The notes: generated from the letters alone by a model not told the origin. A stretch of 64,000 nucleotides of DNA from Alphaproteobacteria bacterium (GCA_964291285.2 OZ219787.1:1632001-1696000), one strand, 5' to 3'; positions 7,496-51,187 are shown, numbered from the stretch's first letter. Numbers and translations: made by a program.

Positions 7496-7691
7496 AGCAT
7501 AATCGGTTCAGGTTGAAACGACGGGGATAGGCCCGGCCCCGCCCCTACCGTATGCACATCTGTCAATTCGGCCTGTATCCGGTCCACTCCCTGTGGACCA
7601 TGTCTGCCCCCTTCGACAGGCAGGGGCCGGAGCGGTGATGGCGTGTGACAAATTGTTCCTAAAATTTAAGTAATAATTCTCTATTCTGGGA

Positions 7692-7718
7692 TTGCATCTG
7701 AGAAAACAGTGATATGAT
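7692..7718 (+). promoter_or_regulatory. Putative sigma70 promoter of element copy 1
   Basis: TTGCAT-N15-TATGAT with extended -10 (TG-A-TATGAT), AT-rich upstream. Confidence 0.5.
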
Positions 7719-7971
7719 AGGTGCGAGGTGAGCGGCATCCGGAGCCGCTTCCCGCCCGCGCCGGCCCGGTGCGGAACGACCCCGATTCAGCCGACAGGCG
7801 AGGTGTGCCCTGCGCCTGCCTCGCGTGCGCGCAATCAGGCGCGCGAACCGCGCCGGCGCCGACACCCGCCCGCGCCGGCACAGGCGCCCGCGCAGGATAC
7901 GCGCGAATAGGGGCCGCTCCGATGCCGGGACGGCATGGCCGTCGAACCGAAACGGAATGAAGGAGCCGCAC

Positions 7972-8145
7972 ATGACATTTCCCGACCCGACCGTCGCCCT
8001 CTCCTCACGACAGGAAGCCTTCTGCCGCCACTACACAGCCTCAACCGGCTCCAGAGGGCCGGCCCCTTCAATGCGCCCCGGCAGCCGGACGGGCCCGGAG
8101 ACGCGGAGTTCGCACCCGGCCATGACAAAACATGACATTCCATGA
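7972..8145 (+). pseudogene. Short ORF (57 aa) with terminase-small-subunit-like HTH N-terminus, apparently internally deleted
   Basis: AAGGAG SD then MTFPDPTVALSSRQEAFCRHYTAS, like the TerS L(T/S)xKQxxFxxxY motif; similarity ends abruptly and ORF stops within CATGACA boxes. Confidence 0.45.
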
Positions 8146-8329
8146 CACATGCCTGGAGTGGGCCCCTGGGTTCGGACAATCGGGCCGGGAGGAAAGCCCT
8201 CTCCCCCCGGGGGCGGCGACAGGCAGAATTCGGGGCGACGCAAAGGCAGGTCCGCCGGCCGTTACCCCGGGCGGGCGTGTCGGGCTATGCTCCGGTGAGA
8301 CCGGCCCGCAATGGAGGACTGAAGAGCCC

Positions 8330-9217
8330 ATGCCTTACGCAACGACCGATGACGGGGTGCGCCTGTATTACGAGGAGGCCGGGTCGGGGACGCCGGTCGT
8401 CTTCGTGCATGAATTCGCGGGCGACATGCGCTCCTGGGAGCCGCAGATGCGCCATTTCTCGCATCGCTACCGCGCGCTCGCCTACAATGCGCGCGGCTAT
8501 CCGCCCTCCGAGGTGCCGGAGGAGCCGTCGAGCTACAGCCAGACGCGCGCCGCGGACGACATTGCGGCAGTCATGGACGCGGCCGGGATTGACCGCGCGC
8601 ATATCTGCGGGCTCTCCAAGGGCGGGTTCGCCACCTTGCATTTCGGCTTCCGACACCCGGCCCGCGCGATCTCGCTGGTCGTGGCGGGCTGCGGTTACGG
8701 GGCCGAGCCCGACAAGCGCGCGCAGTTCAAGGCCGAGGCCGAGGCGACGGCGGAGCTGATCGAGCGGGACGGCATGGACGTCTTCGCCGACATCTACTCG
8801 AAAGGTCCGACCCGGGTGCAGTTCGAGAACAAGGACCCGCGCGGCTGGCGCGAGTTTCGCGACCAGCTTGCCGAACATTCGCAGGCGGGCGCGGCGGCCA
8901 CCATGCGCGGCCTCCAGGCGCGGCGGCCTTCGCTCTACGATCTTACGGACGAGATGGCAGCACTCCGGGTGCCGACCCTGGTGCTGACCGGCGACGAGGA
9001 CTGGCCCTGCCTGCTGCCGGGCGTGCTGATGAAGCAGACCATTCCCTCGGCGGCGCTCTCGGTGATGGTGAATTGCGGCCACACCATCAACATCGAGGAC
9101 CCGGACGGGTTCAACCGCATCTGCGGGGACTTCTTCGCCCAGGTCGATGCCGGCCGCTGGCCGGAGCGCGACCCGCGCGCGGTCACGGGCTCGATCCTCG
9201 GCGTCGAGGCGAAATAG
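8330..9217 (+). CDS. Alpha/beta fold hydrolase
   Basis: VFVHEFAG, YNARGYPPS, GLSKGG nucleophile elbow, GDED, CGH. Confidence 0.9.
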   Translation: MPYATTDDGVRLYYEEAGSGTPVVFVHEFAGDMRSWEPQMRHFSHRYRALAYNARGYPPSEVPEEPSSYSQTRAADDIAAVMDAAGIDRAHICGLSKGGFATLHFGFRHPARAISLVVAGCGYGAEPDKRAQFKAEAEATAELIERDGMDVFADIYSKGPTRVQFENKDPRGWREFRDQLAEHSQAGAAATMRGLQARRPSLYDLTDEMAALRVPTLVLTGDEDWPCLLPGVLMKQTIPSAALSVMVNCGHTINIEDPDGFNRICGDFFAQVDAGRWPERDPRAVTGSILGVEAK

Positions 9218-9225
9218 CCTAAATG

Positions 9226-10287
9226 TCAGGCGGCGGCAGCCTCCATCGCGTCGAGCGGGGCTGTCGGCCGCACATTTGCGGGAAGCCGGAGGCCGAGCGG
9301 GCGGCCGGTGGCCGGGTCGCGGCCATGGCGGCTGAAGAACGGCTCCGGCACGGCGCGCCCGTCCGGCACGGCGAGCCAGATCCGGTAGAGGTGGCGCTTC
9401 CGGCCGGGCAGTTCCTCATAGGCCGTGCGCGTGTGCAGGACCGCGAGATTGTCGATCCACTGGATGTCGCCCGGCTGGAAGTCCATGTCGAGGCGGAGGT
9501 CCGTATCGGCGGCGGTCAGCTCCAGGAAGTCGAGCGCCTCGATTTGCTCGGGCGTCAGGTCGGGTGCGCCGTCGTGCCGCGTGCAGGAGTCGATGAAGCG
9601 CCGCACGAGGTTGACCGTCATGCGCCCGTCGGCCGCCCGCATGAAGACCGGCATCTCGTACCAGGGAAGCTGGCCTTCGACCTCTTCGCCCCGCCGGTCG
9701 ATCAGGAAGGGCTCGGCCAGCACCTTCGCAAGGTCCGGCCGGCGTTCGAGGATGCGGTTCCAGACGGCGCCCGCGCTGACGATGCTGGAGAGGCCGCCCG
9801 TCCGCGCCGGGACGAGGCAGAACAGGCCGACGATCTCCGCGCCGATATCGGTGTGGAAGGGCAGTTCGGCCGAGGACTGGTAGCCGCGCTTGTCGGGCGC
9901 CCAGGCGTCGATGCCGAGGTCCTTCACATGGCCGAGCAGGTGCCCGAGCGGGTTCTGGCAGACGGGCATGCCGATGCGCGACCCGATGGCCCAGAAGGCG
10001 CGCGCGGCGACCTCGCGCGGCCACTCGTCCACCGGCAGGCCGCGCATCAGGGCGAAGCCGCAGCCCTCGACGACGGCGTCGCGCATGTCCCTGAGGCGCG
10101 CATCGAGGCGGGGCAGGGGCAGGTCGTCCCGGGTAAGCGCGGTCAGCTCGCGGTCGAGGGCCGCTCTTGCCACCGTTTCCAGTTCGGCGGTCTCGGCGGC
10201 GTCGAGCGTCACGATCCAGTCGTCCCGCTGCATGAGGTCGCCGCCGTGCCAGACGGACGGGCCGGCGATGGGTTCGAGCGCCGTCAT
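9226..10287 (-). CDS. TauD/TfdA-family Fe(II)/2-oxoglutarate dioxygenase
   Basis: LPFHTD...GLFCL, FQPGDIQWIDNLAVLHTRTAY, RHLYRIWL. Confidence 0.88.
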   Translation of the reverse strand: MTALEPIAGPSVWHGGDLMQRDDWIVTLDAAETAELETVARAALDRELTALTRDDLPLPRLDARLRDMRDAVVEGCGFALMRGLPVDEWPREVAARAFWAIGSRIGMPVCQNPLGHLLGHVKDLGIDAWAPDKRGYQSSAELPFHTDIGAEIVGLFCLVPARTGGLSSIVSAGAVWNRILERRPDLAKVLAEPFLIDRRGEEVEGQLPWYEMPVFMRAADGRMTVNLVRRFIDSCTRHDGAPDLTPEQIEALDFLELTAADTDLRLDMDFQPGDIQWIDNLAVLHTRTAYEELPGRKRHLYRIWLAVPDGRAVPEPFFSRHGRDPATGRPLGLRLPANVRPTAPLDAMEAAAA

Positions 10288-10302
10288 GGGCCTTCCTCCC
10301 GC

Positions 10303-11574
10303 TTATGCGCCGGTTTGCGCGATGTCCCGGCGGCAGAATGCGCCCGGCCAATCTATCGCATCGACGCCGCGATAGGCCAGCGCGCGCGCCTCGCCGCGGG
10401 TCGCCCCGGCCGCGCACACGCCCAGCACCCGGCCGCCGGTTGCGAGCACGCGGCCCCCTTCGCCCGCCGCCGTGCCGGCATGGAAGACGGTGACGCCGTC
10501 CGGCACCCGGTCGAGGCCCGCGATTGCGCCGCCCCGCCGATACGGCCCCGGATAGCCCCCGTTCGCCATGACCACGCAAACCGACGCCTCGTCCGACCAG
10601 CGGAGATCGACATGGGAGAGGTCGCCCTCGGCCGCCGCGACCAGCGCCGGCAGCAGGTCCGAGCGCAGCCGCAGCATCAGCGCCTGCGTCTCCGGGTCGC
10701 CGAAGCGCACATTGAACTCCAGCAGCTTCGGGTCGCCGCCCTCGATCATCAGCCCGGCGAACAGCACGCCGCGATAGGGCATGCCGTCGGCCGCCATCCG
10801 CCGGACGGCCGGCAGGAAGATTTCGTTCTCGATCCTGGCCGCCAGCTCCGGCGTGACCGGGGGCGCGGGCGAGTGGCTGCCCATGCCGCCGGTATTGGGG
10901 CCGGTGTCGCCCTCGCCGGCGCGCTTGTAGTCCTGGGCCGTCTCCAGCATCAGCACGCGCTCGCCGTCCGCCAGCGCGAAGGCGCTCACCTCCTCGCCCG
11001 CAAGGCAGTCCTCGATCACGACCCTGGCGCCTGCCTCTCCGAAAGCGCGCTCGACCATGGCGGCGCTCACGGCGGCTTCGGCCTCCCCGACCGTGGCGGC
11101 GACGGTGACGCCCTTGCCGGCGGCGAGGCCGTCCGCCTTCACCACGACCGGCGCGCCGCTCTCCCGGATATGGGCAATGGCAGCTCCGGCATCGTCGAAC
11201 ACGGCGAAGCCGGCGGTCGGGATGCCGGCGCGGCGGGCGAGGTCCTTCATAAAGGCCTTGGAGCTTTCCAGCCGCGCCGCCGCCCTGTCCGGCCCGAACA
11301 CCGCGATGCCGTCCTGCCGGAGGCGGTCCGCCAGCCCGGCCGCCAGCGGCGCTTCCGGCCCGACGACGACGAGGTCCATGCGTTCCTCCCGTGCAAGCGC
11401 CGCCAGGCCCTCGACATCCTCGGCGGCGACCGCCGCGCAGTCCGCCTCGGCCGCGATGCCGGGATTGCCCGGCGCGCACCAGAGCCGCTCCACCAGCGGC
11501 GAGGCCGCAATCGTCCAGGCGAGCGCATGTTCGCGCCCGCCGCCGCCCACCACCAGAACCCGCATGGCCTTCAC
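10303..11574 (-). CDS. purD: Phosphoribosylamine-glycine ligase
   Basis: VVGGGGREHAL, APGNPG, KADGLAAGKGV, GPNTGGMG, EFNVRFGDPE; start may be 11565. Confidence 0.97.
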   Translation of the reverse strand: MKAMRVLVVGGGGREHALAWTIAASPLVERLWCAPGNPGIAAEADCAAVAAEDVEGLAALAREERMDLVVVGPEAPLAAGLADRLRQDGIAVFGPDRAAARLESSKAFMKDLARRAGIPTAGFAVFDDAGAAIAHIRESGAPVVVKADGLAAGKGVTVAATVGEAEAAVSAAMVERAFGEAGARVVIEDCLAGEEVSAFALADGERVLMLETAQDYKRAGEGDTGPNTGGMGSHSPAPPVTPELAARIENEIFLPAVRRMAADGMPYRGVLFAGLMIEGGDPKLLEFNVRFGDPETQALMLRLRSDLLPALVAAAEGDLSHVDLRWSDEASVCVVMANGGYPGPYRRGGAIAGLDRVPDGVTVFHAGTAAGEGGRVLATGGRVLGVCAAGATRGEARALAYRGVDAIDWPGAFCRRDIAQTGA

Positions 11575-11606
11575 GCCCTCCCGATTCGCGTGTATCTCCG
11601 GCAGCC

Positions 11607-13058
11607 ATGACGCAAGCGCCGCCGCTCTCCAACATACCGGAATACAGTGTCGGCGAGGTCTCGGCAGCCGTTCGCCGCAACCTGGAGGCCGAATTTCCGC
11701 GCGTCCGCGTGCGCGGCGAGGTCTCGGGCTTCAAGCGCGCCGCCTCCGGCCACCTCTATTTCAACCTGAAGGACGACCGCGACGTGTTGAACGCCGTGTG
11801 CTGGCGCGGCGCGGCGGGGCGGCTCGGCCTCCGCCCGGAAGACGGCATGGAGGTGGTCGCGACGGGCCGGGTGACGGCCTACGGCGCGCGCTCCGCCTAC
11901 CAGCTCGTCGTGGACGCGCTCGACCTCGCCGGCGAAGGCGCGCTGCTGAAGCTGCTGGAGGATCGCCGGCGGCGGCTTGCCGAAGAGGGGCTGTTCGACG
12001 CGGACCGCAAGCGGCCGATCCCGTTCCTGCCGGAGCGCGTCGGCATCGTCACCTCGCTCGGCGGGGCGGTGCTGCACGACATCCTCCACCGGCTGCGCGA
12101 ACGCTTCCCGCGCCATGTGCTGGTCTGGCCCGCGCCGGTGCAGGGCGAGGGCGCGGCGGAACGGATCGCCGAAGCCATCGACGGCATGGGGGCATTGCCG
12201 CCGGAAATGCGCCCCGACGTGCTGATCGTGGCGCGCGGCGGCGGCTCGCTGGAGGACCTGTGGGCGTTCAACGAGGAAGCGGTGGTGCGCGCGGCGGCCC
12301 GCTCCGCCATCCCGCTGGTCTCGGCGGTCGGCCATGAGACCGACACGACGCTGATCGACTTCGCGTCCGACCTGCGCGCGCCCACGCCGACGGCCGCGGC
12401 CGAACTGGCGGTGCCGGTGCGCGCCGAACTGCTCGCCGGAACGGCCGGGCAGGGCGAACGGCTGCTGGCGGCGGGCGCGCGCCTCGTGCAGGACCGCCGC
12501 GCGCAGGTCGCCGGCCTCGCGCGCGGCCTGCCGGCGCCGACGGCGCTGCTGGAGCAGGCAGGCCAGCGGCTGGACGACAGGGGCGAGCGCATGGAGGCGG
12601 GGTTGCGCGCCCGCGCGGCCCTGGCGGCCGCCGGGCTGGCGGAACTCTCGGCGCGGTTCGGCCGGCCGCGCGCGCTGCTGGAAAAGCAGGAGGAGCGGCT
12701 GGCGGCATCGGGCGCGGCCTTGCTGCGAACCGGACGCCAGGCGGTGGAGGCGCAGGCGCACCGGCTGGACCGCACGAATGCGGGCCGCCGCCTGCCCGCG
12801 GCGTGGGCGCGCATCGCGGAGAACGCGGCCGCCGGCCTCAACCGGGCCGGCGCGCTGCTCGAAAGCTCCTCCTACCGCCGCGTGCTCGAACGCGGCTTCG
12901 CGCTCGTCCGGGACGAACGGGGTCCGGTCGTGTCGGCGGCGGAGGCGCGGCGGCGGGCGCGCGTCGAGATCGTGTTCGCGGACGGCAAGGCGGCGGCCCA
13001 CATCGTCGGGGACGGCGCGGGCCGCGCGCGCAAGCCGGACCAGGGCACGCTCTTCTGA
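11607..13058 (+). CDS. xseA: Exodeoxyribonuclease VII large subunit
   Basis: SGHLYFNLKD, ARGGGSLEDLWAFNEE, SAVGHETD, RAPTPTAAAE. Confidence 0.96.
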   Translation: MTQAPPLSNIPEYSVGEVSAAVRRNLEAEFPRVRVRGEVSGFKRAASGHLYFNLKDDRDVLNAVCWRGAAGRLGLRPEDGMEVVATGRVTAYGARSAYQLVVDALDLAGEGALLKLLEDRRRRLAEEGLFDADRKRPIPFLPERVGIVTSLGGAVLHDILHRLRERFPRHVLVWPAPVQGEGAAERIAEAIDGMGALPPEMRPDVLIVARGGGSLEDLWAFNEEAVVRAAARSAIPLVSAVGHETDTTLIDFASDLRAPTPTAAAELAVPVRAELLAGTAGQGERLLAAGARLVQDRRAQVAGLARGLPAPTALLEQAGQRLDDRGERMEAGLRARAALAAAGLAELSARFGRPRALLEKQEERLAASGAALLRTGRQAVEAQAHRLDRTNAGRRLPAAWARIAENAAAGLNRAGALLESSSYRRVLERGFALVRDERGPVVSAAEARRRARVEIVFADGKAAAHIVGDGAGRARKPDQGTLF

Positions 13059-13067
13059 ACCGCCGCG

Positions 13068-13694
13068 TCAGGTCAACGGAATGCCGCCTACATGCTCGGC
13101 GAAGGCCGGACGGTCCCGGAGCCGGGCAAGCCAGGCGTCGCAATTAGGCAGGCTGGCGCGCTCGATGCCGGGCAGGCGGGTATAACGGTTGTAGAAGGCG
13201 CCCACGGGAATGTCGCCCATGGTGAAGCGGCCGCCGGCAACGAAGGCGCGCCCGTCCAGATGAGCGTCCAGAATGCCCCAGACCGATTGCAGCGCGGTGG
13301 CTGCGCGGCCGATCGCATCCATGTCGCGGTCGGCTTCCGGCGTCCGGACCATGCCCCAGAAAACGGGCGTCATGTGCGGCTGGAGGGACGCGGTCGCCCA
13401 GTCCATCCAGCGGTCGGCCAGCGTCCGTTCCGCCGGGTCCCCGGGCCAGAGCCCGCCGGGGTCGTGGACCGCGCCCAGATAGCGGACGATGGTATGGCTT
13501 TCCCAGATGACCGTGCCGCCGTCGACCAGCACCGGCACCAGCCCGTTCGGGTTCATGGCGCGGTATTCGGGCGTGTCGTTGCCGCCGAACGGCCCGCCGA
13601 CATCGAGCCGCTCGCAGGCAACGCCGACCTCGCCGACCGCCCACATCGCCTTCTGCACATTGATCGAGTTGTTGCGTCCGTGAATCACGATCAT
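13068..13694 (-). CDS. Glutathione S-transferase (GstB-like)
   Basis: GRNNSINVQK, MNPNGLVPVL, WESHTIVRYL, FTMGDI. Confidence 0.92.
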   Translation of the reverse strand: MIVIHGRNNSINVQKAMWAVGEVGVACERLDVGGPFGGNDTPEYRAMNPNGLVPVLVDGGTVIWESHTIVRYLGAVHDPGGLWPGDPAERTLADRWMDWATASLQPHMTPVFWGMVRTPEADRDMDAIGRAATALQSVWGILDAHLDGRAFVAGGRFTMGDIPVGAFYNRYTRLPGIERASLPNCDAWLARLRDRPAFAEHVGGIPLT

Positions 13695-13699
13695 GGCGG

Positions 13700-14353
13700 C
13701 TATTCCCCTTCGTTGGAGGCGGTGTCCAGCGCGTCCCAGCGCTCGCCCCAGCGGTCGAGATAGACGATTTCCTCGAGCGGCCCCCGCCCGACCGGGCCGA
13801 AATTCCCCATCGGCCAGCCGATCGGCAGGATGGCATAGGAATGCACCCCCGGCGGCAGGCCGAGCGCGCGTTCGCTCTCCTCCTCGAAGAAGAGGTGGCG
13901 GGTGGTCAGCGTCGAGCCGAGGCCGAGCCCGCGCGCCGCCAGCAGCATGTTCTGCACGGCCGGGTAGATCGAGGCGCCCGACATGCGGGTCGGCGCCTCG
14001 CCTTCCTCCAGGCAGGCGACGATCCAGACCGGAGCCTCGTCGAAATGCTCGGTCAGATATTCCACCGCGTCATGCTGGCGGTGGTATTTCTCCGCCGAAC
14101 TGCCGGGCGGCGGCGCGCTTGTCTTGTAACGCGGCCCGATGATCTCGTCGAAGGCGCGCTTGTAATGCACCTTGACCGCCTTCTTGATCTCGCGGTCCTT
14201 GATGACCAGGAACCGCCAGCGCTGGAAGTTGCCGCCATTGGCGGCCGAAGCGCCGGCCTCCAGGATCTTGCGGATCAGCTCGTCCGGCACCGGGTCCGGC
14301 TTCAGCCGGCGCATGGCACGGGTGCCGTGCAGGATTTCGAAGAGTTCGGGCAT
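13700..14353 (-). CDS. Nitroreductase family protein
   Basis: TRAMRRLKPDPVPDE, ANGGNFQRWRFLV, AVQNMLLAARGLGLGS, IGWP. Confidence 0.9.
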   Translation of the reverse strand: MPELFEILHGTRAMRRLKPDPVPDELIRKILEAGASAANGGNFQRWRFLVIKDREIKKAVKVHYKRAFDEIIGPRYKTSAPPPGSSAEKYHRQHDAVEYLTEHFDEAPVWIVACLEEGEAPTRMSGASIYPAVQNMLLAARGLGLGSTLTTRHLFFEEESERALGLPPGVHSYAILPIGWPMGNFGPVGRGPLEEIVYLDRWGERWDALDTASNEGE

Positions 14354-14451
14354 GGCGTTGCGGGGTCTCCGTCCGTGTTTCGGGATGCGGCGGGTGCGGA
14401 AGGGTTATGGATAGAGGCTTTCGGCTGCGGACGGAAGCAGATGGCTGCCTT

Positions 14452-15491
14452 TCAGGAAGCGCCGGCGATGGCCGCGTGCGGCGGTACGCAGTCGTCCCCG
14501 ACCAGGTGGCAGGAGACCAGATGCCCCGCGCGCACCTCGCGCAAGGCCGGCTTTTCGCGGTGGCACCGGTCCACGGCGAAGGGGCAGCGCGGCGCAAAGC
14601 GGCAGCCGGGCGGCGGGTCGATGGGATTGGGCGGGTCTCCCTGGAGGCGGACCCTGCCGTCCTGCCCGCTCGTGCGGCGCCTCGCGGAAGGCACGGCCGA
14701 GATCAACGCCCACGTATAGGGATGCAGCGGCAGGGTGAACAGCGAGATGCGGTCCGCCTGCTCGACGATCTCGCCGAGATACATCACCGCAATGTCGTCG
14801 CAGATATATTGCACCACGCCGAGATCGTGGGAGATGAACAGGTAGGTGAGGCCGAACCCCTCCTGCAATTCGCGGAGCAGATTCAGGATCTGTGCCTGGA
14901 TCGCCACATCGAGGGCGGAGACGGGCTCGTCGCAGACGATCAGGTCCGGTTGCGTCGCCAGCGCCCTCGCGACGCCGATCCGCTGGCGCTGGCCGCCCGA
15001 GAACTGGTGCGGGAAGAGCGCAGCCTGTTCGGGCCTGAGGCCGACACGGTCGAAGAGCTCGGCGACGCGGAGGTCCCGTTCGGCGGGGTCGCCGACATCC
15101 ATGAGCTCCATCGGCTCCCGTACGATGGCGCCGGCGCGCATGCGCGGATTGAGCGACGAGTAGGGGTCCTGGAACACGATCTGGATCTTGCGGCGCATCT
15201 CGCGCAGCGCATTGCCTCCCAGCGTTGTCATCTCAACGCCGTCCAGCCGGATCGACCCGCCGGTGACGGGCACCAGGCGCATGGCGGCGAGCGCGGCGGT
15301 CGTCTTGCCCGATCCGCTTTCGCCGACGATTCCGAAGGTCGAGCCCCGGCGCACTTGGTAGCTGATGCCGTCCACGGCATGAACCGTGCCGCCGGGGGTC
15401 AGGACATTGCGGCGGGGCAGGCGGAAATGGACCTTGAGGTCGCGGACGTCCAGCAGGTAGTCGGCGCCGCTGCCCTGTGTCTCCCCGCCCG

Positions 15492-15495
<4 letters not shown>
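14452..15495 (-). CDS. Peptide/nickel ABC transporter ATP-binding subunit (OppF-like)
   Basis: GESGSGKT, FSGGQRQR, CDEPVSALD, HPYT, GCRFAPRC. Confidence 0.94.
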
Positions 15496-16493
<998 letters not shown>

Positions 16494-16496
16494 GGT

Positions 16497-17386: not shown

Positions 17387-17390
<4 letters not shown>
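16497..17390 (-). CDS. Peptide/nickel ABC transporter permease (OppC/DppC-like)
   Basis: LGTDNLGRD, EFVKAARSIG, ILPN, EAALSFLGL. Confidence 0.93.
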
Positions 17391-18325
<935 letters not shown>

Positions 18326-18445
18326 AGCAGCGTAGAAGAGTCGCTGGGCTATGACGGTCAGGAATGCGATGACGCGGCCATCCTCGTCCTGAGGTCCCCG
18401 GCGCCGGGGCGGCTTCGGGTTACGCCGCCCCGGCGTCCGGCCGGG

Positions 18446-20189: not shown

Positions 20190-20712
20190 ATGTCATGGGA
20201 TGTCATGTTTTGCTGCGAGCGCTGACAGGGTGCTGCGCGAAGTGTCATGGAATGTCATGCGATGTCATGATCTGCATGCGGCTGGTGCATACCGGATGGC
20301 CCGTTCGGGCATAGTGCCGTCCGTTCCGCCGGCGGGAGCTCCGGATATTCCGTCCGGTTTTTTCGAAGTAGCGTTTCCGGCATGGTTCCTTCCTTTCGAT
20401 CCATCTTCGTTCCGTTCTCCCCGCCGCCGTCCCGCCGGAGCAGCGGACCCTGATTCGCGCGTAACGTGCGCCTCCGCGCCCGCGCCCGCCGGCGCGCGCT
20501 GCGCGGCGGCGCGGTTCGTGCGCCTGATTGCGCGCGCGAGGCCGCAGACGCACTTCTCCCGTCAGCTTCTCAGGGGTTTTTTTCGCGCCGGCGCGAACCG
20601 GGAAGGGGCGGCTCCGCGCGGACGCCGCCTCCTTGTCTCCGGTCTCATATAGGCAGGAGATTCCTGGAAAGCAAGGGTATTTTAAGAATTATTTCTGTTT
20701 TTCCGAACAAAC
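20190..20712 (-). repeat. Dispersed intergenic element, copy 2
   Basis: Minus strand CTCGCGCGCGCAATCAGGCGCACGAACCGCGCCG (~20508-20540); five TGTCATG boxes at 20191, 20201, 20243, 20253, 20263; SD + 42-aa ORF 20383-20255; ends approximate. Confidence 0.85.
20646..20674 (-). promoter_or_regulatory. Putative sigma70 promoter of element copy 2
   Basis: CTTGCTT-N17-TATATG, like the alphaproteobacterial CTTG...CTATAT consensus; same position relative to leader as in copies 1 and 3. Confidence 0.5.
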
Positions 20713-20806
20713 AGCAAGTCGTACGACTGCTCGTCTGTCGTATCTCCCGCATGTTGGGGCGGCGGGGGAGAGGCCTTCTTCGCCTGTCAACGCCCCGCCG
20801 GGTGCC

Positions 20807-37524: not shown

Positions 37525-40952
<3,428 letters not shown>

Positions 40953-41093
40953 CCGCAGGGCGCGGCTGCTCCGCATTGTGAGTCCTGTATCGGGATACCG
41001 TTTATGCGGGCCGATGCCGGGATTATGGTATCGTAAAGCCGGCCGCCGGACGGCGGTTGCCGCGTTCGTCATCCGCGAAGGGACGAGGGAGCC

Positions 41094-41525: not shown

Positions 41526-41541
41526 GCGAGCCGGCGCGCGC

Positions 41542-42822: not shown

Positions 42823-42850
42823 TGCGACTCGCTTTCGGGTGGGCGGCGCC

Positions 42851-43717: not shown

Positions 43718-43730
43718 CGGATGCTTCGAC

Positions 43731-44459
43731 TTATCGTTGCGGGGCAAGGAGTTCCCGCGCTCGGGCGAGGTCGGCGGGAGTATCGACACCGAGCGGAACG
43801 CTGTCAACGACCGCCACCGCCATCTGCATTCCCGCTTCCAGTGCGCGCAACTGCTCCAGTTTCTCGCGCTGCTCCAGCGGGCTCGGCGGCAGCGCCGTGA
43901 AGCGTTCGAGCGCCGCCCGGCGCCAGGCATAGAGGCCGATATGGTGGAAGAGCGGGCCGGGACCCGTCGGCGCGGTTGCGCGCGTGAAATAGAGCGCGCG
44001 TCCGTCCGCGCCGAACACTGCCTTCACGACATTGGGGTTCGCGCGTTCCTCCTCGCGCACGATCTCGGCCGCGACCGTGCCGATATCCACATTCGGGTCG
44101 TCAAGCAGGGCCAGCGCGGCGCGGATATCTCCCGGCGGCACGGTCGGCAGGTCGCCTTGGAGGTTGACCACCCGGTCGAACCGCCGGCCGGGGTCGAAGG
44201 CGTCGAGCGCGGCGCGGATGCGGTCCGAGCCGGAGGGCAGGTCCGGGTCCGTCATCGCCGCCTCGCCGCCCGCTTTGCGCACCGCCTCGGCCACTTCCGG
44301 CTCGCAGCAGGCGACGAGCACCGGTCCGACGCCGGCCTCCAGGGCGCGTCGGAGCACATGGACGACCAGCGGCCGCCCGGCGATGTCCGCCAGCGGCTTG
44401 CCGGGCAGGCGCGCGGACGCCATCCGCGCGGGTATCGCGATCAGCGCAGAACCGCTCAT
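43731..44459 (-). CDS. kdsB: CMP-KDO synthetase
   Basis: [39 protein letters not shown]. Confidence 0.95.
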
Positions 44460-44606
44460 CGCTTGGGATTTACGCGACGCAACGCCGCATATCCGCTCAT
44501 TTCAGCCGTCCCTACACTCGGATTCCGACAGAGGAATTCCCGGCACACGCCATGCCGCCGTGCAAGAATGCCCTGGCGCGCGCGGCCGTCAACTGGACGA
44601 CAAGGC

Positions 44607-45668
44607 ATGGATTTTTTCGAGGTCAACAAAATTGCAGGCGGGCTCCTGCTGGCCGGCGTCGTCACCATCTTTATCGGCATTTTCGGCAATACTCTGGTCC
44701 CCAAACATGATGGCGGGCACGGCGCTGAGCCCCACGCGGCCGACATGGCCGCCGCGGTTCCCGCCGCGCGGACTGAACCGGCGGGCCCCGAGCCCATCGC
44801 CGGCATGCTGGCCGAGGCCGATATCGCGCGCGGCGAGTCGATCACCAAGAAATGCACCGCCTGCCATACCTTCGGTGAAGGCGGCGCGGCCAAGCAGGGG
44901 CCGAACCTCTACAATATCGTCGGCGCGGACATCGCGGCGCGGGACGACTTCGGATATTCCGACGCGATGGCCGAACATCCGGGCGAGTGGGACTACGCCA
45001 ATCTCAACGCCTTCCTCTTCAAGCCGAAGAGGTTCCTCAAGGGCACCAAGATGACTTTCGTCGGGCTGAAGAAGGCCCGCGACCGCGCCGATCTCATCGC
45101 CTATCTGCGCACGCTCTCCGCCTCGCCGCAGCCGCTGCCGGAAGGCGGCGCGGACGGGCCGGCCAAGGAGGGCGAAGCCGAACCCAAGGCGGCCCTGCCG
45201 GCGGAACCGGACCGCAAGCGCGCAGCCGGGGAACCCTCTCCCGCGCCGGAAACGGAAGAGCGCCTTGGCTGGAGCTTCTCGCTGATCGGGTCGGCCATGG
45301 CGGCGGAGCCGGCCAAGGACCTGGCCGAGCGCCTCGCGGCCGGCGATCCCGAGGCCGGCAAGAAAGTGTGGCGCAAGTGCAAGGCCTGTCACACCGTCAA
45401 GAAGGGCGGCAAGAAGCGCATCGGCCCCAATCTCTGGAATATCGTCGGCGCGGATGTGGGAGCACGCGAGGGCTTCAAATATTCCAAGGGCATGCTGGCG
45501 TTCGGCGGCCAGTGGACCTACGAGCGGCTCGACGCCTACCTCACGAAGCCGAGGAAGGTGGTGAAGGGCGGCAAGATGTCCTTTGTCGGCCTCAAGAAGC
45601 CGAAGGACCGCGCCAATGTCATCCTCTTCCTGCGGAGCATGGCGGACGAACCGCTGCCGCTCCCCTGA
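44607..45668 (+). CDS. Membrane-anchored cytochrome c (CycM-like) with two class I heme domains
   Basis: MDFFEVNKIAGG + TM; CTACH..GPNL..GTKM and CKACH..GPNL..GGKM; divergent from kdsB. Confidence 0.9.
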   Translation: MDFFEVNKIAGGLLLAGVVTIFIGIFGNTLVPKHDGGHGAEPHAADMAAAVPAARTEPAGPEPIAGMLAEADIARGESITKKCTACHTFGEGGAAKQGPNLYNIVGADIAARDDFGYSDAMAEHPGEWDYANLNAFLFKPKRFLKGTKMTFVGLKKARDRADLIAYLRTLSASPQPLPEGGADGPAKEGEAEPKAALPAEPDRKRAAGEPSPAPETEERLGWSFSLIGSAMAAEPAKDLAERLAAGDPEAGKKVWRKCKACHTVKKGGKKRIGPNLWNIVGADVGAREGFKYSKGMLAFGGQWTYERLDAYLTKPRKVVKGGKMSFVGLKKPKDRANVILFLRSMADEPLPLP

Positions 45669-45692
45669 GGCGCCTCGACGCGCGCCGGCCTG

Positions 45693-46457
45693 ATGATCCG
45701 CGCCTTCCTCGACCGGCTGGGCGACACCGTCCGCCCCATCCACCGGTGCTATTTCCGCTCCGGCGTTGCGGTCGAGCTCAAGGACGACGAATCGCCCGTC
45801 ACCCGCTCCGACCGGGAGGCCGAACTGGCGCTGCGCCGGGAGATTGCGGACGCCTTTCCGGAAGACGGCATACTGGGCGAGGAGTTCGGTTCCGAACGCC
45901 TCGATGCGCGGCGCGTCTGGGTGCTTGACCCCCTCGACGGCACGCGCTCCTTCGTCAACGGCAAACCCGCATTCGGCGTCATGGCGGCGCTGCTGGAGGA
46001 AGGCAGGCCGGTCGCGGGCCTGATTGACATGCCGATCCTGTCCGAGCGCTGGATCGGCATTGCCGGTGAGCCGACGACCTTCAACGGCAGGCCGGTGCAT
46101 ACGCGCGCCTGCGAGAGCCTGGCCGCCGCCTCGCTCAACGCCACCTCGCCGGACATGTTCCCGGACAGCGCCTCGCGGGCGGCGTTCGACCGCCTGTCGG
46201 CAGCCTGCGGACAGCGCCATTTCGGCGGCGACTGCCATCTCTACGGCCTGCTGGCCTGCGGCTGGATCGACCTGGTCGCGGAGGACAGCATGGCGCCGTA
46301 CGACTATCTGCCCCATGTCGCCATCGTCGAAGGCGCCGGCGGGCGCATCGCAGACTGGCGGGGCCGGCCGCTCGATCTCGAGTCCGACGGCACCGTGTTG
46401 GCCGTGGGCGCGCCGGAGCTGTTCGACCGGGCGCTGGAACGCCTGCGCGGCCCATAG
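45693..46457 (+). CDS. Inositol monophosphatase family (HisN-like)
   Basis: SPVTRSDREAE, ILGEE, WVLDPLDGT, DWRG. Confidence 0.85.
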   Translation: MIRAFLDRLGDTVRPIHRCYFRSGVAVELKDDESPVTRSDREAELALRREIADAFPEDGILGEEFGSERLDARRVWVLDPLDGTRSFVNGKPAFGVMAALLEEGRPVAGLIDMPILSERWIGIAGEPTTFNGRPVHTRACESLAAASLNATSPDMFPDSASRAAFDRLSAACGQRHFGGDCHLYGLLACGWIDLVAEDSMAPYDYLPHVAIVEGAGGRIADWRGRPLDLESDGTVLAVGAPELFDRALERLRGP

Positions 46458-46484
46458 TGCGGCAGGGCGCCGGGTCCGGTTGAC

Positions 46485-47864
46485 ATGGCGACGCGGGTCC
46501 TCGTTCCCTCGGGTGTGCTCGGTTTGGGCTTCGACCGCGAGGCGCTCCGGCGCGCGGCGGCGGACAGGCCGGACATCATCTGCATAGACGGCGGCTCGAC
46601 CGACAGCGGCCCCTTCTATCTGGGCGCGGGAGTTTCGAAATATTCCGACGCCTCCGTGCGGTCGGAATGGAAGGAACTGCTGGCCGCACGCGCGGCGGCC
46701 GGCTGCCCGCTCGTGCTCGGCTCCGCCGGCACCTGCGGCACCGACGCCATGGTGGAGGGCATGCTGGCGGCGACCCGCGCCATCGCGGAGGCGGAGGACC
46801 GCCGCCTCAGGGTCGCCACGCTGAAATCGGAGCAGCCGGCCGCGTCTGTCGGTGAAGCTCTGGAAGCCGGCAGGCTGGCGCCGCTTGCAGGCGCGCCGGA
46901 AGCTGGCATCTCGGCCGACGACATCGCGCGCTGCACGCATATCGTGGCGCTTGCAGGCGCGGAGCAGATTGCGGCTGCGCTCCGGACGGGCGCGGATGTG
47001 GTGATCGCCGGGCGCGCGACCGACACGGCGGCGATCTCGGCGCTGCCGCTGATGAACGGCGAGCATGCGGGCACGGCCTGGCACGGCGCCAAGATCGGTG
47101 AATGCGGTGCGCTCTGCTCGACGAGGCCGATGAGCGGCGTGATCGGCCTCGAGTTCGACGCTGCCGGCTGCACGGTCGAGCCTCATGCCGACGGCGCGCG
47201 CTGCACGCCGGAATCCGTGGCGGCGCACATGCTCTACGAGAACGCCGACCCGTTCATCCTCCACGAGCCGGGCGGGCACCTCGATGCGCGCGGCGCGACA
47301 TACGACGCGCTGGACGGGCGGCGGGTGCGCATCTCCGGCTCCCGCTGGGTCGCGTCCGAAACCTACTCGGTGAAGCTGGAAGGGGCGCGGCTCGCCGGAT
47401 ACCAGACGACGGCGCTCGCGATCCTGCGCGACCGGCGCTATGTCGCCGATGCCCGGCGATGGCTCGACCGGCTGGAGGCGTTCCTCGGACGCGAAATCCC
47501 GGCCCGCATGGGCCTCGAAGCCCGTGACTATGCCATCGAGTTCCGCCTGATCGGCGTGGATGCGGCGCTCGGGCCGCTGGAGGCGCGGACGTCCGATCCG
47601 GTCGAGGTCGGCGTGCTCGCCATCGTGACGGCGGCCTCGCAGGAAATGGCGACGGAGATCGCCCGGCTCGCCAACCCCTTCCTGCTGCATTTCCCGCTGA
47701 CCGACGAGGAGGACCTGCCGACCTTCGCCTTTCCCTACTCGCCGGCCGAAACCGAGCGCGGCCCGCTCTACGAGTTCGCCCTCAACCATGTCATGCGGCT
47801 CGACGACCCGATGGAAGCGTTCCGGTTGGAGGTGACGGAGGTCGGGCATGGCCCGGCTGGGTGA
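46485..47864 (+). CDS. DUF1446 / AtuA-like protein
   Basis: PSGVLGLGF, DGGSTDSGPFYLG, GADVVIAGRATD, AWHGAKIGECG, AHMLYEN. Confidence 0.82.
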   Translation: MATRVLVPSGVLGLGFDREALRRAAADRPDIICIDGGSTDSGPFYLGAGVSKYSDASVRSEWKELLAARAAAGCPLVLGSAGTCGTDAMVEGMLAATRAIAEAEDRRLRVATLKSEQPAASVGEALEAGRLAPLAGAPEAGISADDIARCTHIVALAGAEQIAAALRTGADVVIAGRATDTAAISALPLMNGEHAGTAWHGAKIGECGALCSTRPMSGVIGLEFDAAGCTVEPHADGARCTPESVAAHMLYENADPFILHEPGGHLDARGATYDALDGRRVRISGSRWVASETYSVKLEGARLAGYQTTALAILRDRRYVADARRWLDRLEAFLGREIPARMGLEARDYAIEFRLIGVDAALGPLEARTSDPVEVGVLAIVTAASQEMATEIARLANPFLLHFPLTDEEDLPTFAFPYSPAETERGPLYEFALNHVMRLDDPMEAFRLEVTEVGHGPAG

Positions 47865-48162
47865 CGCGGTAAGGGCGGTCCGGTCCAAGAATGCCGGGCC
47901 ATTCATGGTCACGGTGGACATATTCTGCGGCACGGACGCGGCTTTCCAGTGGGTCAATGCAGCGGTCCCGGTGGCGGCGGTCGAGCGGCTCTACCGCGTG
48001 GACCCGGCGCAGGTCGCACGCTACGAACTGCCGGAGTTGCGGGTGGTGAAATTCAGCTTTCCCCGCCCCGTGCCGCAGGGAAGCCGCGGCGACCGCGACA
48101 TGCACGGCGCGCAATGGGCGGTGCTGCTGGCGGAAGCGGAATTCGGCGATCCCGGCCAATAG
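47848..48162 (+). CDS. DUF4387 family protein
   Basis: VRSKNAGPFMVTVDIF, KFSFPRP..QG...DRDMHGAQ; overlaps DUF1446 gene. Confidence 0.82.
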   Translation: MARLGDAVRAVRSKNAGPFMVTVDIFCGTDAAFQWVNAAVPVAAVERLYRVDPAQVARYELPELRVVKFSFPRPVPQGSRGDRDMHGAQWAVLLAEAEFGDPGQ

Positions 48163-48164
48163 CG

Positions 48165-49358
48165 TCAGACGACCTTCGCGGCCCTGAGCGCGGCGATCTT
48201 CTCCGGGCCGTAGCCGAGGCCGGCCAGCAGCTCGTCCGTATCCGCGCCCATGGCGGGCGCCGGCCGGGCGGGCGGCGCCGCGCCGGTCCGGATCGGCGGG
48301 CCGACGGAGCCGACGCGGCGGCCGCTCGGATGGTCCACCCAGAGATGGCGGCCGGTTTCGGTCGGGAAGGGCGCGTCCATGGCGCCGGCGATGTCATGCA
48401 CGGGCGCGACCGGCACCCGGCCCTGCAGTTCTTCCAGCCATTCCGCCGTCGTCTTCGCGGAGAGCGCGTCGTCGAGCACCTCCGTCACCAGCTCCCTGTT
48501 GGCAAGGCGGGCGGCGAAATCGTGGAAGCGCGGATCGTCCCTCCATTCCGGACGGCCGAGCGCATCCACCAGCTCGCCCCAGAACTTCTCCTTGTTGCAC
48601 ATGACGAACAGCCAGCCGTCGCGCGTCCGGTAGAGCTGCGAGGGCGTGAGGTTCGGGTGCGAGGAGCGCGGCTCGCGGCCCTGAACGATGCCTGCGGTCA
48701 GATACCAGCAGGCGAGGTAGCCGAGATTCGACATGGCCGTGTCGTAGAGCGAAACGTCGAGGTCCATGCCCCTGCCGCCGGCCCGGGCCGCCAGAATGCC
48801 CGAGGTCATGGCGAGCGCCGCCTGCACGCCGGTCGCGAGATCGACCATCGAGAGCCCCATGCGGGCGGGCGGCGTGTCGGGCTCGCCGGTGACGGAGAGA
48901 TAGCCGGCCTCCGCCTGCATCAGATAGTCGTAGCCGGGCCAGGCGGCGCGCGGACCCTCGCTGCCATAGGCGGAGAGATGCACGCAGACGATGGCGGGGT
49001 TGACGGCCTTCAGCGCGTCCCAGGTAAGGCCCAGCTGCGCCGGCCGGTCGCCGCGCAGATTGTCGAGCAGCCCGTCGGCGGAGCGCACCAGGTCGTGCAG
49101 CACCTCCCGGCCGGCCTCCTGCTTGAGGTCGAGCGCCATCGAGCGCTTGTTGCGGTTGAACGCCTGGAAGAACAGGCTGTCCCCCTCGGGCAGCGGATCC
49201 TTCGGGTGGCGGACGAACCGGCCGACATCGCCGCCCTCGGCAATGTTCTCGACCTTGACGACCTCGGCGCCCAGGTCCGCAAGCTGCATCGTGCCGAACG
49301 GCCCGGCCCCGTACTGCTCCACCGCAACGATGCGGACCCCCTCCAACGGCAACATCAT
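48165..49358 (-). CDS. CaiB/BaiF family CoA transferase
   Basis: PLEGVRIV, AGPF..MQLADLGAEVVKVE, NRNKRS, PGYD. Confidence 0.92.
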   Translation of the reverse strand: MMLPLEGVRIVAVEQYGAGPFGTMQLADLGAEVVKVENIAEGGDVGRFVRHPKDPLPEGDSLFFQAFNRNKRSMALDLKQEAGREVLHDLVRSADGLLDNLRGDRPAQLGLTWDALKAVNPAIVCVHLSAYGSEGPRAAWPGYDYLMQAEAGYLSVTGEPDTPPARMGLSMVDLATGVQAALAMTSGILAARAGGRGMDLDVSLYDTAMSNLGYLACWYLTAGIVQGREPRSSHPNLTPSQLYRTRDGWLFVMCNKEKFWGELVDALGRPEWRDDPRFHDFAARLANRELVTEVLDDALSAKTTAEWLEELQGRVPVAPVHDIAGAMDAPFPTETGRHLWVDHPSGRRVGSVGPPIRTGAAPPARPAPAMGADTDELLAGLGYGPEKIAALRAAKVV

Positions 49359-49484
49359 GCTTCTCCCCGGACATGGGCACCGCGATGAGGTAGCGCCTCC
49401 GTCCGGCCCGGTCCAGCGCGACCGAATTGCAGCGTCGGGCGAAATGGTGAAACTGCGCCGGCCCCTTTTCGGAGACATCTGGAC

Positions 49485-50423
49485 ATGACCGCACCCAAAC
49501 TCGGCTATCTGCTGCCCACCCGCGAGCGCATCATGAGCGGCCTGAACGAGACCGGGCCGATGCTGGCGCTGGCCGAGCGGGCCGAGGCGCTCGGCTACGA
49601 CTCGATCTGGATCGGCGACAGCCTGCTCGCGCGACCGCGCCACGACCCGCTGACCCTGATGGCGGCGGTTGCCGCGCGCACCCGGCGCGTGGCGGTCGGC
49701 ACGGCCGTGCTGCTGCCGGCGCTGCGCAACCCGGTCGTGCTGGCGCACCAGGTCGCCACCATCGACCGCATCGCCGAGGGGCGGCTGATCCTGGGCTACG
49801 GCATTGCCGGCGACGTGCCGAATATCCGCGCCGAGTTCGCAGCCGCCGGCGTGCCGTTCGAGAAGCGCGTCGGCCGGATGCTGGAGGGGCTCCGCCTCTG
49901 CCGCGCGCTCTGGTCCGGCGAGCCGGTGGACTGGGAGGGGCGCTGGCCGGTGAAGGACGGCGTGCTCGGGCCGGTGCCGCACAATCCGGGCGGCCCGCCC
50001 ATATGGCTCGGTACGGGCCACCCGGCGGGCCTCGAACGGACCGCCCGGCATTTCGACGGCTGGTTCCCGACCGGCCCCGACGCCGAGGGCTGGGGAGAGA
50101 GGTGGCGCACGGTGCAGGCCGCCGCCGCTGCCGCCGGACGCCTGGCCGGCGCGGTGACGGGCGCGGTCTATCTGACGATTGCGCTCGACGAGGACGCGGA
50201 CGCCGGCAATGCGCGCATCGACGCCTATCTGGAGAGCTATTACGGCGCACCCGCTGCCGTCATCCGCCGCCGCCAGACCGCCTTCGCCGGCCCGCCGGAA
50301 GCCGCGGCGGACTGGATCGGCGGCTATGCCGAGCGCGGCGCCAGCCATATCGCGCTGCGCTTCGTCGGCGACCACGAACGCATGCTGGAGGCCGTCGCCG
50401 CCGTGAGGGACAGGATCGGCTGA
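49485..50423 (+). CDS. Luciferase-like (LLM) flavin-dependent oxidoreductase
   Basis: AEALGYDSIWIGDS, VGTAVLL..RNPVVLA, GRLILG, PPIWLG. Confidence 0.9.
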   Translation: MTAPKLGYLLPTRERIMSGLNETGPMLALAERAEALGYDSIWIGDSLLARPRHDPLTLMAAVAARTRRVAVGTAVLLPALRNPVVLAHQVATIDRIAEGRLILGYGIAGDVPNIRAEFAAAGVPFEKRVGRMLEGLRLCRALWSGEPVDWEGRWPVKDGVLGPVPHNPGGPPIWLGTGHPAGLERTARHFDGWFPTGPDAEGWGERWRTVQAAAAAAGRLAGAVTGAVYLTIALDEDADAGNARIDAYLESYYGAPAAVIRRRQTAFAGPPEAAADWIGGYAERGASHIALRFVGDHERMLEAVAAVRDRIG

Positions 50424-50597
50424 CGGGACCCGCCGCAAGGCGTCATGGAATGTCATGTTTTGTCATGCGGGCCCGGCAGGACCCCCTGCCATGTGTCATG
50501 AGATGTCATGATCTGCATGCCGATGGCGCATGGTCCGTAGTCGTTTCCGGCATGAAGCCGTCCACTCTTCGATCTCCTTCTGCGTCTTGCGTTCACC

Positions 50598-50700
50598 GTC
50601 GCCCCGGTCCCGGAGCCGGGGCCCATCCCTGACCGTTGCGGCCCGGTGGAGAGGGCGGAGGATGGACCCCGGCTCTCCGCTCCGCTCCGTCCAGGGCGAC
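50598..50700. repeat. REP/RIME-like palindromic unit nested in element copy 3
   Basis: GTCGCCC..GAGCCGGGGCCCATCC-spacer-GGATGGACCCCGGCTC..GGGCGAC inverted arms. Confidence 0.65.
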
Positions 50701-51043
50701 TGTGAGGGCTTGCGGATAAGGTCATTTCGGCCTGCACGGAGCCGGTCCTACCATCCGCCGGCACGAGCCTTTCGGCCAGCATTGCGGTCAGTTCGGGGTC
50801 GGTTGCGGTCATCGTTCCTCCTTGCTCCGACGGGGAGGGGGTCCCTTTTCCGCGCGTATCCTGCGCGGGCGCCCACGCCTGCCCGGGCGCGTGTCGGCGC
50901 CGGCGCGGTTCGCGCGCCTGATTGCGCGCGCGAGACGCAGGACGCACGTCTCCTGTCGGCTTCTCACGGGTTTTCAGAAAGTGGCGCCGCCCGGCCGCGC
51001 AACGCCCAGGAAAGCGGCTCCGGAGTCCGCTTCCCTGGGGACC

Positions 51044-51070
51044 ATCATACCACAATCCGCCAGATGTCAA
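51044..51070 (-). promoter_or_regulatory. Putative sigma70 promoter of element copy 3
   Basis: TTGACA-N15-TATGAT with extended -10 (TG-G-TATGAT). Confidence 0.6.
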
Positions 51071-51187
51071 GCCAAAATCATGAACAAAAAGCAAAAATAC
51101 TGGAAATTGTTCATGCTTCATGAATTGCGACACCCGGCAAATCCGCGTGTATAACGAAACCGATGGGCGCATGGAGGGGGACGCGGC

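Follow-up and report, generated by a model that had tools for sequence, protein, structure and literature searches.

What occupies three intergenic gaps of this alphaproteobacterial genome, and why do the three resemble one another? The stretch that we analysed (GCA_964291285.2, OZ219787.1; 64,000 nucleotides, called the window below) is C3:1632001-1696000 of a 6.13-Mb genome of 68% GC in five contigs. A first-pass annotation made from the sequence alone had described in these gaps a dispersed element of four modules, and we find all four in each of them: a tract rich in AT that contains TTGTTC and promoter-like hexamers, ~230 nt of GC-rich sequence whose blocks are nearly identical between copies, a Shine-Dalgarno (SD) sequence with a short open reading frame (ORF), and an array of CATGACA boxes at intervals of exactly 10 nt. 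Our results make it fairly probable that the gaps hold members of a genus-wide family of mobile small-terminase cassettes, most of them decayed, with a protein that would bind the boxes of its own cassette and a way of moving for which we propose a mechanism below.

Family membership, copy number and boundaries of the cassette

The positions of the modules, counted from the first base of the window, are as follows.

7648-8147, plus strand: copy 1 cassette, with a sharp 5' boundary against the unrelated GC-rich flank
7648..7723, plus strand: copy 1 5' AT-rich module, with TTGTTC at 7655-7660, -35-like TTGCAT at 7692-7697, and TGn followed by -10-like TATGAT at 7713-7718
7724..7971, plus strand: copy 1 GC-rich leader, a putative 5' untranslated region (UTR), ending in the SD AAGGAG at 7960-7965
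7972..8145, plus strand: copy 1 ORF of 57 aa, an internal-deletion derivative of the 329-aa TerS-like gene described below, with its stop inside the boxes
8121..8147, plus strand: copy 1 3' module, three CATGACA boxes at 8121, 8131 and 8141 (10-nt phase)
8154..8184, plus strand: remnant resembling an IS3-family terminal inverted repeat (TGGAGTGGGCCCC...), outside the copy 1 cassette proper
20715-20191, minus strand: copy 2 cassette
20641..20715, minus strand: copy 2 5' AT-rich module, with TTGTTC at 20710-20705, TTGCTT at 20674-20669 and TATATG at 20651-20646
20405..20640, minus strand: copy 2 GC-rich leader
20255..20404, minus strand: copy 2 short ORF of 49 aa, of uncertain coding status, with an MPETLL... 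core in the ~41-aa 'MPKTQ..EYPE..HDIS' family
20191..20269, minus strand: copy 2 3' module, five CATGACA boxes in groups of three and two
20713..20800, minus strand: 88 nt preceding the copy 2 start, confined to this genome and absent where orthologous sites are empty
51113-50441, minus strand: copy 3 cassette
51038..51113, minus strand: copy 3 5' AT-rich module, with TTGACA at 51070-51065 and TGn plus TATGAT at 51049-51044
50813..51037, minus strand: copy 3 GC-rich leader
50453..50812, minus strand: copy 3 ORF of 119 aa, with an N-terminus (MTATDP...) in common with a 218-aa acidic ORF family and its stop inside the boxes
50441..50510, minus strand: copy 3 3' module, five boxes (four CATGACA, one CATGACG) in groups of two and three

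The three copies belong to a large family. An iterated nhmmer profile of the 5' module has 110 matches in the genome, 98 of which reach the 3' end of the model. A box module on the same strand lies downstream of 92 of these 98 within 4.5 kb and of 85 within 1.2 kb, and 90 of the 113 box modules in the genome are paired with a 5' module. In compact copies the two modules are separated by 45-1131 nt, which gives cassettes of 0.4-1.4 kb, about 100 per genome. The guess of the first-pass annotation that many more than three copies exist is therefore borne out. The cassette has defined ends. At the 5' boundary, a GC-rich unrelated flank changes sharply to the AT-rich start, and in pairwise comparisons similarity extends past the start of the profile by a median of 0-5 nt for most copies. 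The 3' boundary is the last box.

The number of boxes per 3' module ranges from 2 to 8; the three, five and five of the window agree with the three to five reported before. CATGACA occurs 901 times in the genome, compared with 22-190 times for four heptamers with its bases scrambled (CATCAGA, CAAGTCA, CTAGACA, GATCACA); the one-letter variants included in the count occur 192 to 2110 times. A distance of exactly 10 nt from box to box is found 275 times, and the triple-box pattern 111 times against none for a reversed control. These counts and spacings, set against their controls, are far beyond chance. Of 71 cassettes judged from a rough home-made gene call, 39 have the downstream gene on their own strand and 32 have it on the other, in line with the earlier remark that the element is not simply a leader for host genes. 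The same rough call shows a bias of cassettes to sit behind a co-oriented upstream gene (28 versus 10 within 150 nt).

The ORFs between leader and boxes differ among the window copies, and the question is whether they are arbitrary. Copies 1 and 3 share the identical runs of 39 and 23 nt noted previously. When copy 1 is compared with the long copies of the family, query positions 1-403 and 448-521 align, with ~870 nt absent between them. The match thus consists of the 5' module with the first ~70 nt of the ORF, and then the last ~60 nt. Its 57-aa ORF retains the N-terminal ~24 residues of a terminase-like protein before it runs out of frame. This deletion derivative recurs at C1:227587, C2:586394 and C2:1068691 with unrelated flanks, from which we conclude that the deleted form itself was copied. 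The copy 2 ORF belongs to a loosely conserved group of ~41-aa ORFs and matches no Pfam family, and the copy 3 ORF matches neither a Pfam nor a PHROG family. No Pfam family was found either for the 218-aa acidic ORFs with which copy 3 shares its N-terminus. The stops of all three ORFs fall inside the box arrays. Three boxes in 10-nt phase place TGA and ATG in every frame, which we take as a by-product of the array. The variable ORF of the first-pass annotation holds in so far as the ORFs differ, but they are not arbitrary: the intact form is a 329-aa TerS-like gene, of which copy 1 is a deletion derivative.

We considered whether an extra 88-150 nt beside copies 1 and 2 could be part of the element, and rejected this as the DNA occurs only once in the genome and in none of the 16 congeners searched. 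A comparable piece at C1:360900 turned out to be the remnant of an older small gene and not cassette. The 88 nt upstream of copy 2 are probably older intergenic DNA as well.

Purifying selection on a small-terminase-like gene linked to its boxes

Ten copies of ~1.3 kb in the genome carry an ORF of 329 aa, so that a search for the longest copy with an intact ORF, as the first-pass annotation had proposed, does find one. Residues 11-71 of the protein match Pfam Terminase_2 (PF03592; E 1.8e-11, 45.2 bits against a cut-off of 26.1), although the match spans profile positions 2-62 of 141 only. The protein also matches the terminase small subunit family PHROG 51 (E 9.9e-13), and a PDB profile search finds the DNA-binding domain of SF6/SPP1-type G1P (4zc3, 2cmp, 3zqp). 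In an AlphaFold2 model, the blocks of ten residues over residues 11-50 have a mean predicted local distance difference test score (pLDDT) of 93-95, and two long helices follow at 52-90 and 93-106 with pLDDT ~70. The ten best Foldseek matches to this model are all small terminases, at weak E-values; for 3zqq_C, 128 columns are aligned, but with E 6.5e-3 and a query TM-score of 0.17. Beyond this region the protein is acidic and ends in a basic tail, yet many of its residues are invariant in an alignment of 21 sequences.

Across 51 intact copies from this and related genomes, the ratio of nonsynonymous to synonymous substitution (dN/dS) comes to 0.37 overall, with 0.225 over residues 1-160 and 0.51 over the residues that follow. 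The overall value indicates that the protein is maintained by purifying selection. Close relatives of the protein form at least 338 clusters. All but one of the 120 listed carry PF03592, and the few listed clusters with a source name are all called terminase small subunit. Viral contigs hold no close homologue (3 loci, 34% identity, helix-turn-helix (HTH) only), and phage records no close relative, with matches covering only the N-terminal 15-28% of the protein. A search for longer, fused homologues gave none, which is weak evidence. Each cassette has one gene only, and none has a large terminase. Its DNA-binding domain places the protein in the small-terminase family, but the usual genomic partnership is missing. 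The term non-autonomous in the first-pass annotation is apt for the missing recombination enzyme, but the family is not purely non-autonomous, given an intact form with a selected gene.

Two packaging-related regions of the genome can be mentioned here. A small packaging module at C2:85335-91365 (L126:7335-13365) contains portal, HK97-type capsid, HNH endonuclease and a weak TerL-nuclease match, with an integrase and a transposase nearby; it lies ~8 kb from the long cassette C2:75864-77173. A second portal-protease remnant with two integrases is found at C2:678970-683066.

The taxonomic distribution is narrow for the whole cassette and wider for its gene. The leader has at least 18 matches in each of 13 of 16 congeners, and the same 13 genomes have 9-171 matches each to the triple-box pattern, which is absent from the three congeners without leader. 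The triple-box pattern is also absent from 24 genomes of other genera, where the leader gives two marginal single matches only (E 6e-4 and 2e-4), and neither was found in 8 genomes of other genera of the same family. The three cassette-free congeners measure 3.4-3.8 Mb, at the small end of the range of the genus, and the carriers 3.5-6.1 Mb. Records with a homologue of the protein are assemblies of uncultured Alphaproteobacteria and of Rhodospirillaceae, including one that bears the name of the sponge genus Spongia, and the DNA runs containing the stretch are largely labelled sponge metagenome. A plasmid collection has no DNA match to the cassette. No description of such an element was found in the literature as far as it was open to our search. 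We conclude that the family is abundant and real, and apparently undescribed.

Distant TerS-like genes of 45-62% identity, found by tblastn in other assemblies, were inspected at 15 loci. At these loci nhmmer gave no match to the 5' module, and the upstream sequence inspected has no long GC-rich leader; at several of them we read an AT-rich, promoter-like tract directly before the gene. By our reading, C[ACG]TGAC[AG] boxes in 10-nt phase are retained at eight of the 15, where they overlap the stop codon or follow it closely. The presence of gene and boxes without the leader in these distant relatives indicates that the gene with its boxes is the old core and that the leader was acquired later, in this genus.

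The leader is conserved: its Jukes-Cantor distance is 0.255 (core 0.21), compared with 0.48 for the synonymous divergence (dS) of the adjacent genes. In 89 aligned leaders the -10 positions TA..AT are either invariant or conserved at more than 90%, mostly with TG two bases upstream, which fits a putative promoter of the extended -10 type, judged by conservation and position. A comparison with Rfam, suggested at the outset, matched the cassette to no family: a tRNA is the window's only match at gathering score, and the best hit of a permissive scan of copy 1 (E 1.5) is far below gathering. The tRNA gene lies at 57140-57213 on the minus strand. Leader sequence occurs in contigs of three metatranscriptome runs from three studies. 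We rejected its depth as a sign of transcription, since the leader-to-flank depth in the best RNA run (~230-400, from contigs and not reads) equals that of a DNA-like run (~350).

Insertion and decay at orthologous sites

Are the cassettes mobile? We compared orthologous sites in congener genomes (G000, G002, G006, G007, G012 and G014). The copy 1 site is empty in G014 and G007, where the flanking genes are ~50-55 nt apart, and in G006 it holds a cassette of only 77% identity between flanks of 95% identity. At the copy 2 site the flanks are joined directly in G007 and G014, and G006 has a cassette of 93% identity. The copy 3 site is filled in G014 and contains a larger insert in G007.

The site at C1:360900 shows further states. 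G012 has an intact small ORF there and no cassette; this ORF (MAKVTGDEVRFEE..., G012:C5, locus L152, between 2599511 and 2600027) survives only as a remnant in the genome of the window. In G000 a cassette lies beside a remnant of the small ORF. The G006 contigs pass from the flanks into cassette sequence and end there, and we read this site as filled. G002 retains ~45 nt only, namely the last bases of the leader and three boxes.

The reverse case also exists, as the genome of the window is empty at C3:2056089-2056174 and C3:1259850-1259871, where relatives carry cassettes. Exact junctions could not be taken from these two sites, with flanks of 84-91% identity that are too diverged for placement. 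At the C3:1259850-1259871 site the insert exceeds the cassette in size and lies between two copies of a 21-nt hairpin.

The occurrence of empty, filled and decayed states among congeners leads us to the view that cassettes, once inserted, decay through the loss of internal sequence until solo boxes are left. Such decay probably accounts for part of the 23 unpaired box modules. The mobility proposed in the first-pass annotation is thereby upheld in the evolutionary sense.

Proposed mechanism, rival explanations and neighbouring repeats

We propose that the family descends from a phage-type small-terminase gene unit. Its intact form consists of its own putative promoter, the ~230-nt leader acquired in the genus, the 329-aa TerS-like gene and the phased boxes overlapping the stop codon. 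The sites recognised by SPP1/SF6-type small terminases and by lambda Nu1 are repeats that lie within or beside the gene of the protein itself, and by analogy the 329-aa protein may bind the phased boxes as a pac- or cosB-like cis site. With a phase of one helical turn, the whole array would face the same side of the double helix, an arrangement expected if the DNA wraps round an oligomer. The leader might serve as a 5' UTR controlling translation of the protein. The cassette would be moved in trans by machinery encoded elsewhere, because it encodes no enzyme itself. Most copies, including all three in the window, are internally deleted forms or carriers of other short ORFs, and decay can continue down to solo box arrays. 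A more specific possibility is that this is a new kind of mobile element, whose sole gene is small-terminase-like and whose protein marks its own boxes, the unit being cut, copied or packaged by borrowed machinery of phage-like particles or host repair; we put this forward tentatively and consider it rather doubtful. If it were true, the cassette would be a selfish 'terminase-site' element that spreads without a transposase, and the seeding of the chromosome with packaging-type sites would be a by-product.

Several results weigh against the proposal of a mobile small-terminase cassette. The Pfam search gave Terminase_2 only for the long ORF and nothing for the other cassette ORFs, so that no transposase or recombinase is encoded. 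The first-pass annotation had seen no transposase, integrase or terminal inverted repeat, and the cassette indeed has none. It had also suggested a comparison of empty with filled loci for target-site duplications, and neither these nor terminal inverted repeats were seen at the junctions examined, including copy 2. The two ends of the cassette, the AT-rich start and the CATGACA array, show no inverted match to each other. Empty sites could in principle be clean deletions and not pre-insertion states. Searches with PF03237 and PF03354 found no Terminase_6N or TerL_ATPase gene in the genome, and there is a single weak TerL_nuclease match, in the small packaging module ~8 kb from one long copy. 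Kinship of the cassette protein with a 227-aa ORF next to this resident TerL was considered and dropped, as there is no homology. The 218-aa acidic ORF family shows weak constraint (pN/pS 0.17-0.82). Genome-wide, the box modules have no even spacing (coefficient of variation 1.157 versus 1.047 +/- 0.08 for random placement) and no strand bias. A simple sigma-70 scan found no site in or near any of the three copies. The spacers of 15, 15 and 17 nt, compared with 16-18 nt for a sigma-70 promoter, explain this failure, together with a copy 2 -10 that ends in G; of the sigma70-like promoter annotated earlier, the conserved -10 stands but a canonical promoter does not. Finally, the leader folds with a z-score of -1.02, and 32 of 200 shuffles fold at least as well. 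RNAalifold on the leader alignment gives -7.6 kcal/mol with 11 consensus pairs. An assembled leader structure has 84.6% of cells paired against 83.4% when shuffled; it was built from averaged pair probabilities of the same sequences, so that a slide control favours it by construction.

These folding results bear on a different explanation, in which the leader is the functional core, a riboswitch- or attenuator-type RNA, and the cassettes are a regulon of small genes with a shared switch, the ORFs and boxes being secondary. The leader does lie between a conserved -10 and the SD, and it evolves at about half the synonymous rate. Its hairpin P1 has four pairs with changes on both sides, the sole place of clear covariation and a sign of compensatory change (column pair 29-50: AU 30, GC 14, GU 14; pair 26-54: GC 74, AU 7). 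The folds, as we read them, allow two mutually exclusive GCGCGC stems as well as pairing of the SD with a conserved GCUCC. Against this, no Rfam family matches, and the z-score and alignment folding energy are as given above. Over the whole structure, 500 shuffles reached the observed both-side-change cells and covariation score in 9 cases and the paired fraction in none, but the number of both-side-changed pairs in 119, which is not above the shuffles. We discarded alignment folding and mutual information as evidence for helices, as they carry mostly subfamily signal. Distant relatives keep gene and boxes without the leader, and most ORFs after the leader are decayed. We therefore regard an RNA core as unlikely. 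The structured leader of the first-pass annotation is weakly supported, with covariation clear in P1 only, and so is its alternative of a multi-copy structured RNA cassette, given that the more distant relatives have no such leader at all. The boxes invite another comparison. The Pho box CTGTCAT has an 11-nt period, and TGTCATG, the other strand of the boxes, resembles Pho-box direct repeats. The boxes might then be sites of a host winged-helix regulator of the PhoB/OmpR type and the cassettes a host-controlled regulon, which would suit direct heptamer repeats one helical turn apart on a single DNA face. Their period is 10 and not 11 nt, however, and they lie at the 3' end of the unit instead of before the -10. 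They also accompany the terminase-like gene in distant relatives, and the absence of the triple-box from the three cassette-free congeners and the 24 genomes of other genera is ill-suited to a conserved host regulator. Such a regulon seems very improbable to us.

The cassettes could also be non-autonomous passengers of an abutting insertion sequence (IS), moved by one-ended or composite transposition. The candidate is an IS3-family element of 1.26 kb (OrfA/OrfB) with ends TGGAGTGGGCCCC..., which is found 6 nt beyond the last box in several cassettes (e.g. C1:689772-691030). Many other cassettes, including copy 1 in the window, have a short remnant of its end. In favour of this idea, 15 of the 42 exact occurrences of GGAGTGGGCC are exactly 14 nt from the start of the last box, and nine further ones have their far end 1261 nt from a box module on the opposite strand. 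Full IS3-family copies abut the box module in three regions examined, and by our reading copy 1 has remnants on both sides. Many cassettes lack such a remnant, though, and where remnants exist they point away from the cassette and do not enclose it. The 5' end of the cassette has no matching repeat, and two other IS occupy fixed positions in the leader, which fits a cassette that is a favoured target and not cargo. It is thus very unlikely that this IS carries the cassettes. A host-beneficial device for phage interference or transduction, in which many small-terminase-like proteins and dispersed pac-like sites divert the packaging motor of a phage or gene-transfer agent onto the chromosome, would explain a small-terminase fold with a conserved C-terminal half. 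The density of about one box module per 54 kb and the capsid, portal, HNH and TerL-nuclease module in the genome would suit it too. It is at odds with spacing that is no more even than random and with the missing strand bias. Moreover, most copies are decayed, three congeners do without cassettes, and the viral contigs have no close homologue. We consider such a device quite unlikely. A chromosome-wide packaging network under selection has no support from our checks, given random spacing, no strand bias and no canonical large terminase.

How does a mobile small-terminase cassette compare with known systems? It resembles SPP1/SF6-type TerS with pac, and lambda cosB, in the N-terminal HTH (G1P), perhaps in the helices that follow, and in phased repeats at its own gene. 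It differs from them in having no adjacent large terminase or phage gene, in its ~100 dispersed solo sites per genome and, compared with SPP1/SF6 TerS, in a long acidic conserved C-terminal half. Like miniature inverted-repeat transposable elements (MITEs) and other non-autonomous IS derivatives, the family has many short deleted copies beside fewer long ones, is intergenic and varies in presence between relatives. Unlike them it shows no terminal inverted repeats or target-site duplication, and its long copy has no transposase. The cassette therefore behaves like an IS with MITE-like derivatives but fails the defining tests of transposase, inverted ends and duplication. Repetitive extragenic palindromic sequences and bacterial interspersed mosaic elements (REP/BIME), enterobacterial repetitive intergenic consensus (ERIC), Correia and BOX repeats are likewise modular, intergenic and of high copy number with varying numbers of 3' sub-repeats, whereas the cassette is much longer, has a promoter, a leader and a selected gene, and is not palindromic. 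Satellites use small-terminase-like proteins to redirect packaging. Phage-inducible chromosomal islands (PICI) and related satellites share with the cassette a small-terminase-like gene outside a phage and possibly an own packaging site. The cassette has no integrase, replication or regulatory module, measures 0.4-1.4 kb against several kb, and exists in ~100 copies per genome. It is neither a REP/BIME/BOX repeat, nor an Rfam RNA, nor a satellite.

We rate the mobile small-terminase cassette as a combination of known kinds, a phage terminase-recognition module that behaves as an interspersed repeat, and its mode of spread has a fair chance of being new. If our explanation is right, a phage packaging-recognition module of small terminase and site would have become a self-propagating chromosomal repeat and would make up a visible share of the intergenic DNA across a whole genus of sponge symbionts. 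It would also offer testable mobility without a transposase and a possible link of dispersed repeats to capsid-mediated gene transfer. The contigs of draft relatives often end in a cassette, which would explain the poor assembly of these genomes.

Besides the IS3-family element, two IS are found within the leader. An IS110-family element of ~1.1 kb, with a 343-aa 'GIDVAK' transposase, lies at one leader position (after GCCGACRGGAGA) in the same orientation in five cassettes:

C1:640191-641314: IS110-family insertion in leader
C1:858924-860047: IS110-family insertion in leader
C2:876821-877943: IS110-family insertion in leader
C3:1276529-1277651: IS110-family insertion in leader
C2:1145193-1148468: IS110-family insertion in leader

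The identical position in all five suggests that the dispersed leader is the specific target of this element. An IS that encodes a DDE transposase of 599 aa (Pfam DDE_Tnp_1) has split the leader of at least seven cassettes; the break falls at profile position 260-263 and the IS is found in both orientations, for example:

C1:257955: 599-aa-transposase IS in leader
C3:685815: 599-aa-transposase IS in leader
C3:941317: 599-aa-transposase IS in leader
C4:199366: 599-aa-transposase IS in leader
C2:676626: 599-aa-transposase IS in leader
C3:196185: 599-aa-transposase IS in leader
C3:831661: 599-aa-transposase IS in leader

At least three IS families, IS110, IS4/IS1634-like and IS3, each take a fixed position in or beside the cassette, which provides a natural system for the study of target choice. 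A short repeat (CCGTTCAGGTTGAAACG...) and REP-like GTCGCCCCCG...CGGGGGCGAC hairpins also occur beside cassettes, at 7500-7560 in the window and in the flanks at C2:710876 and C2:730652. The intergenic regions are mosaics of several repeat families.

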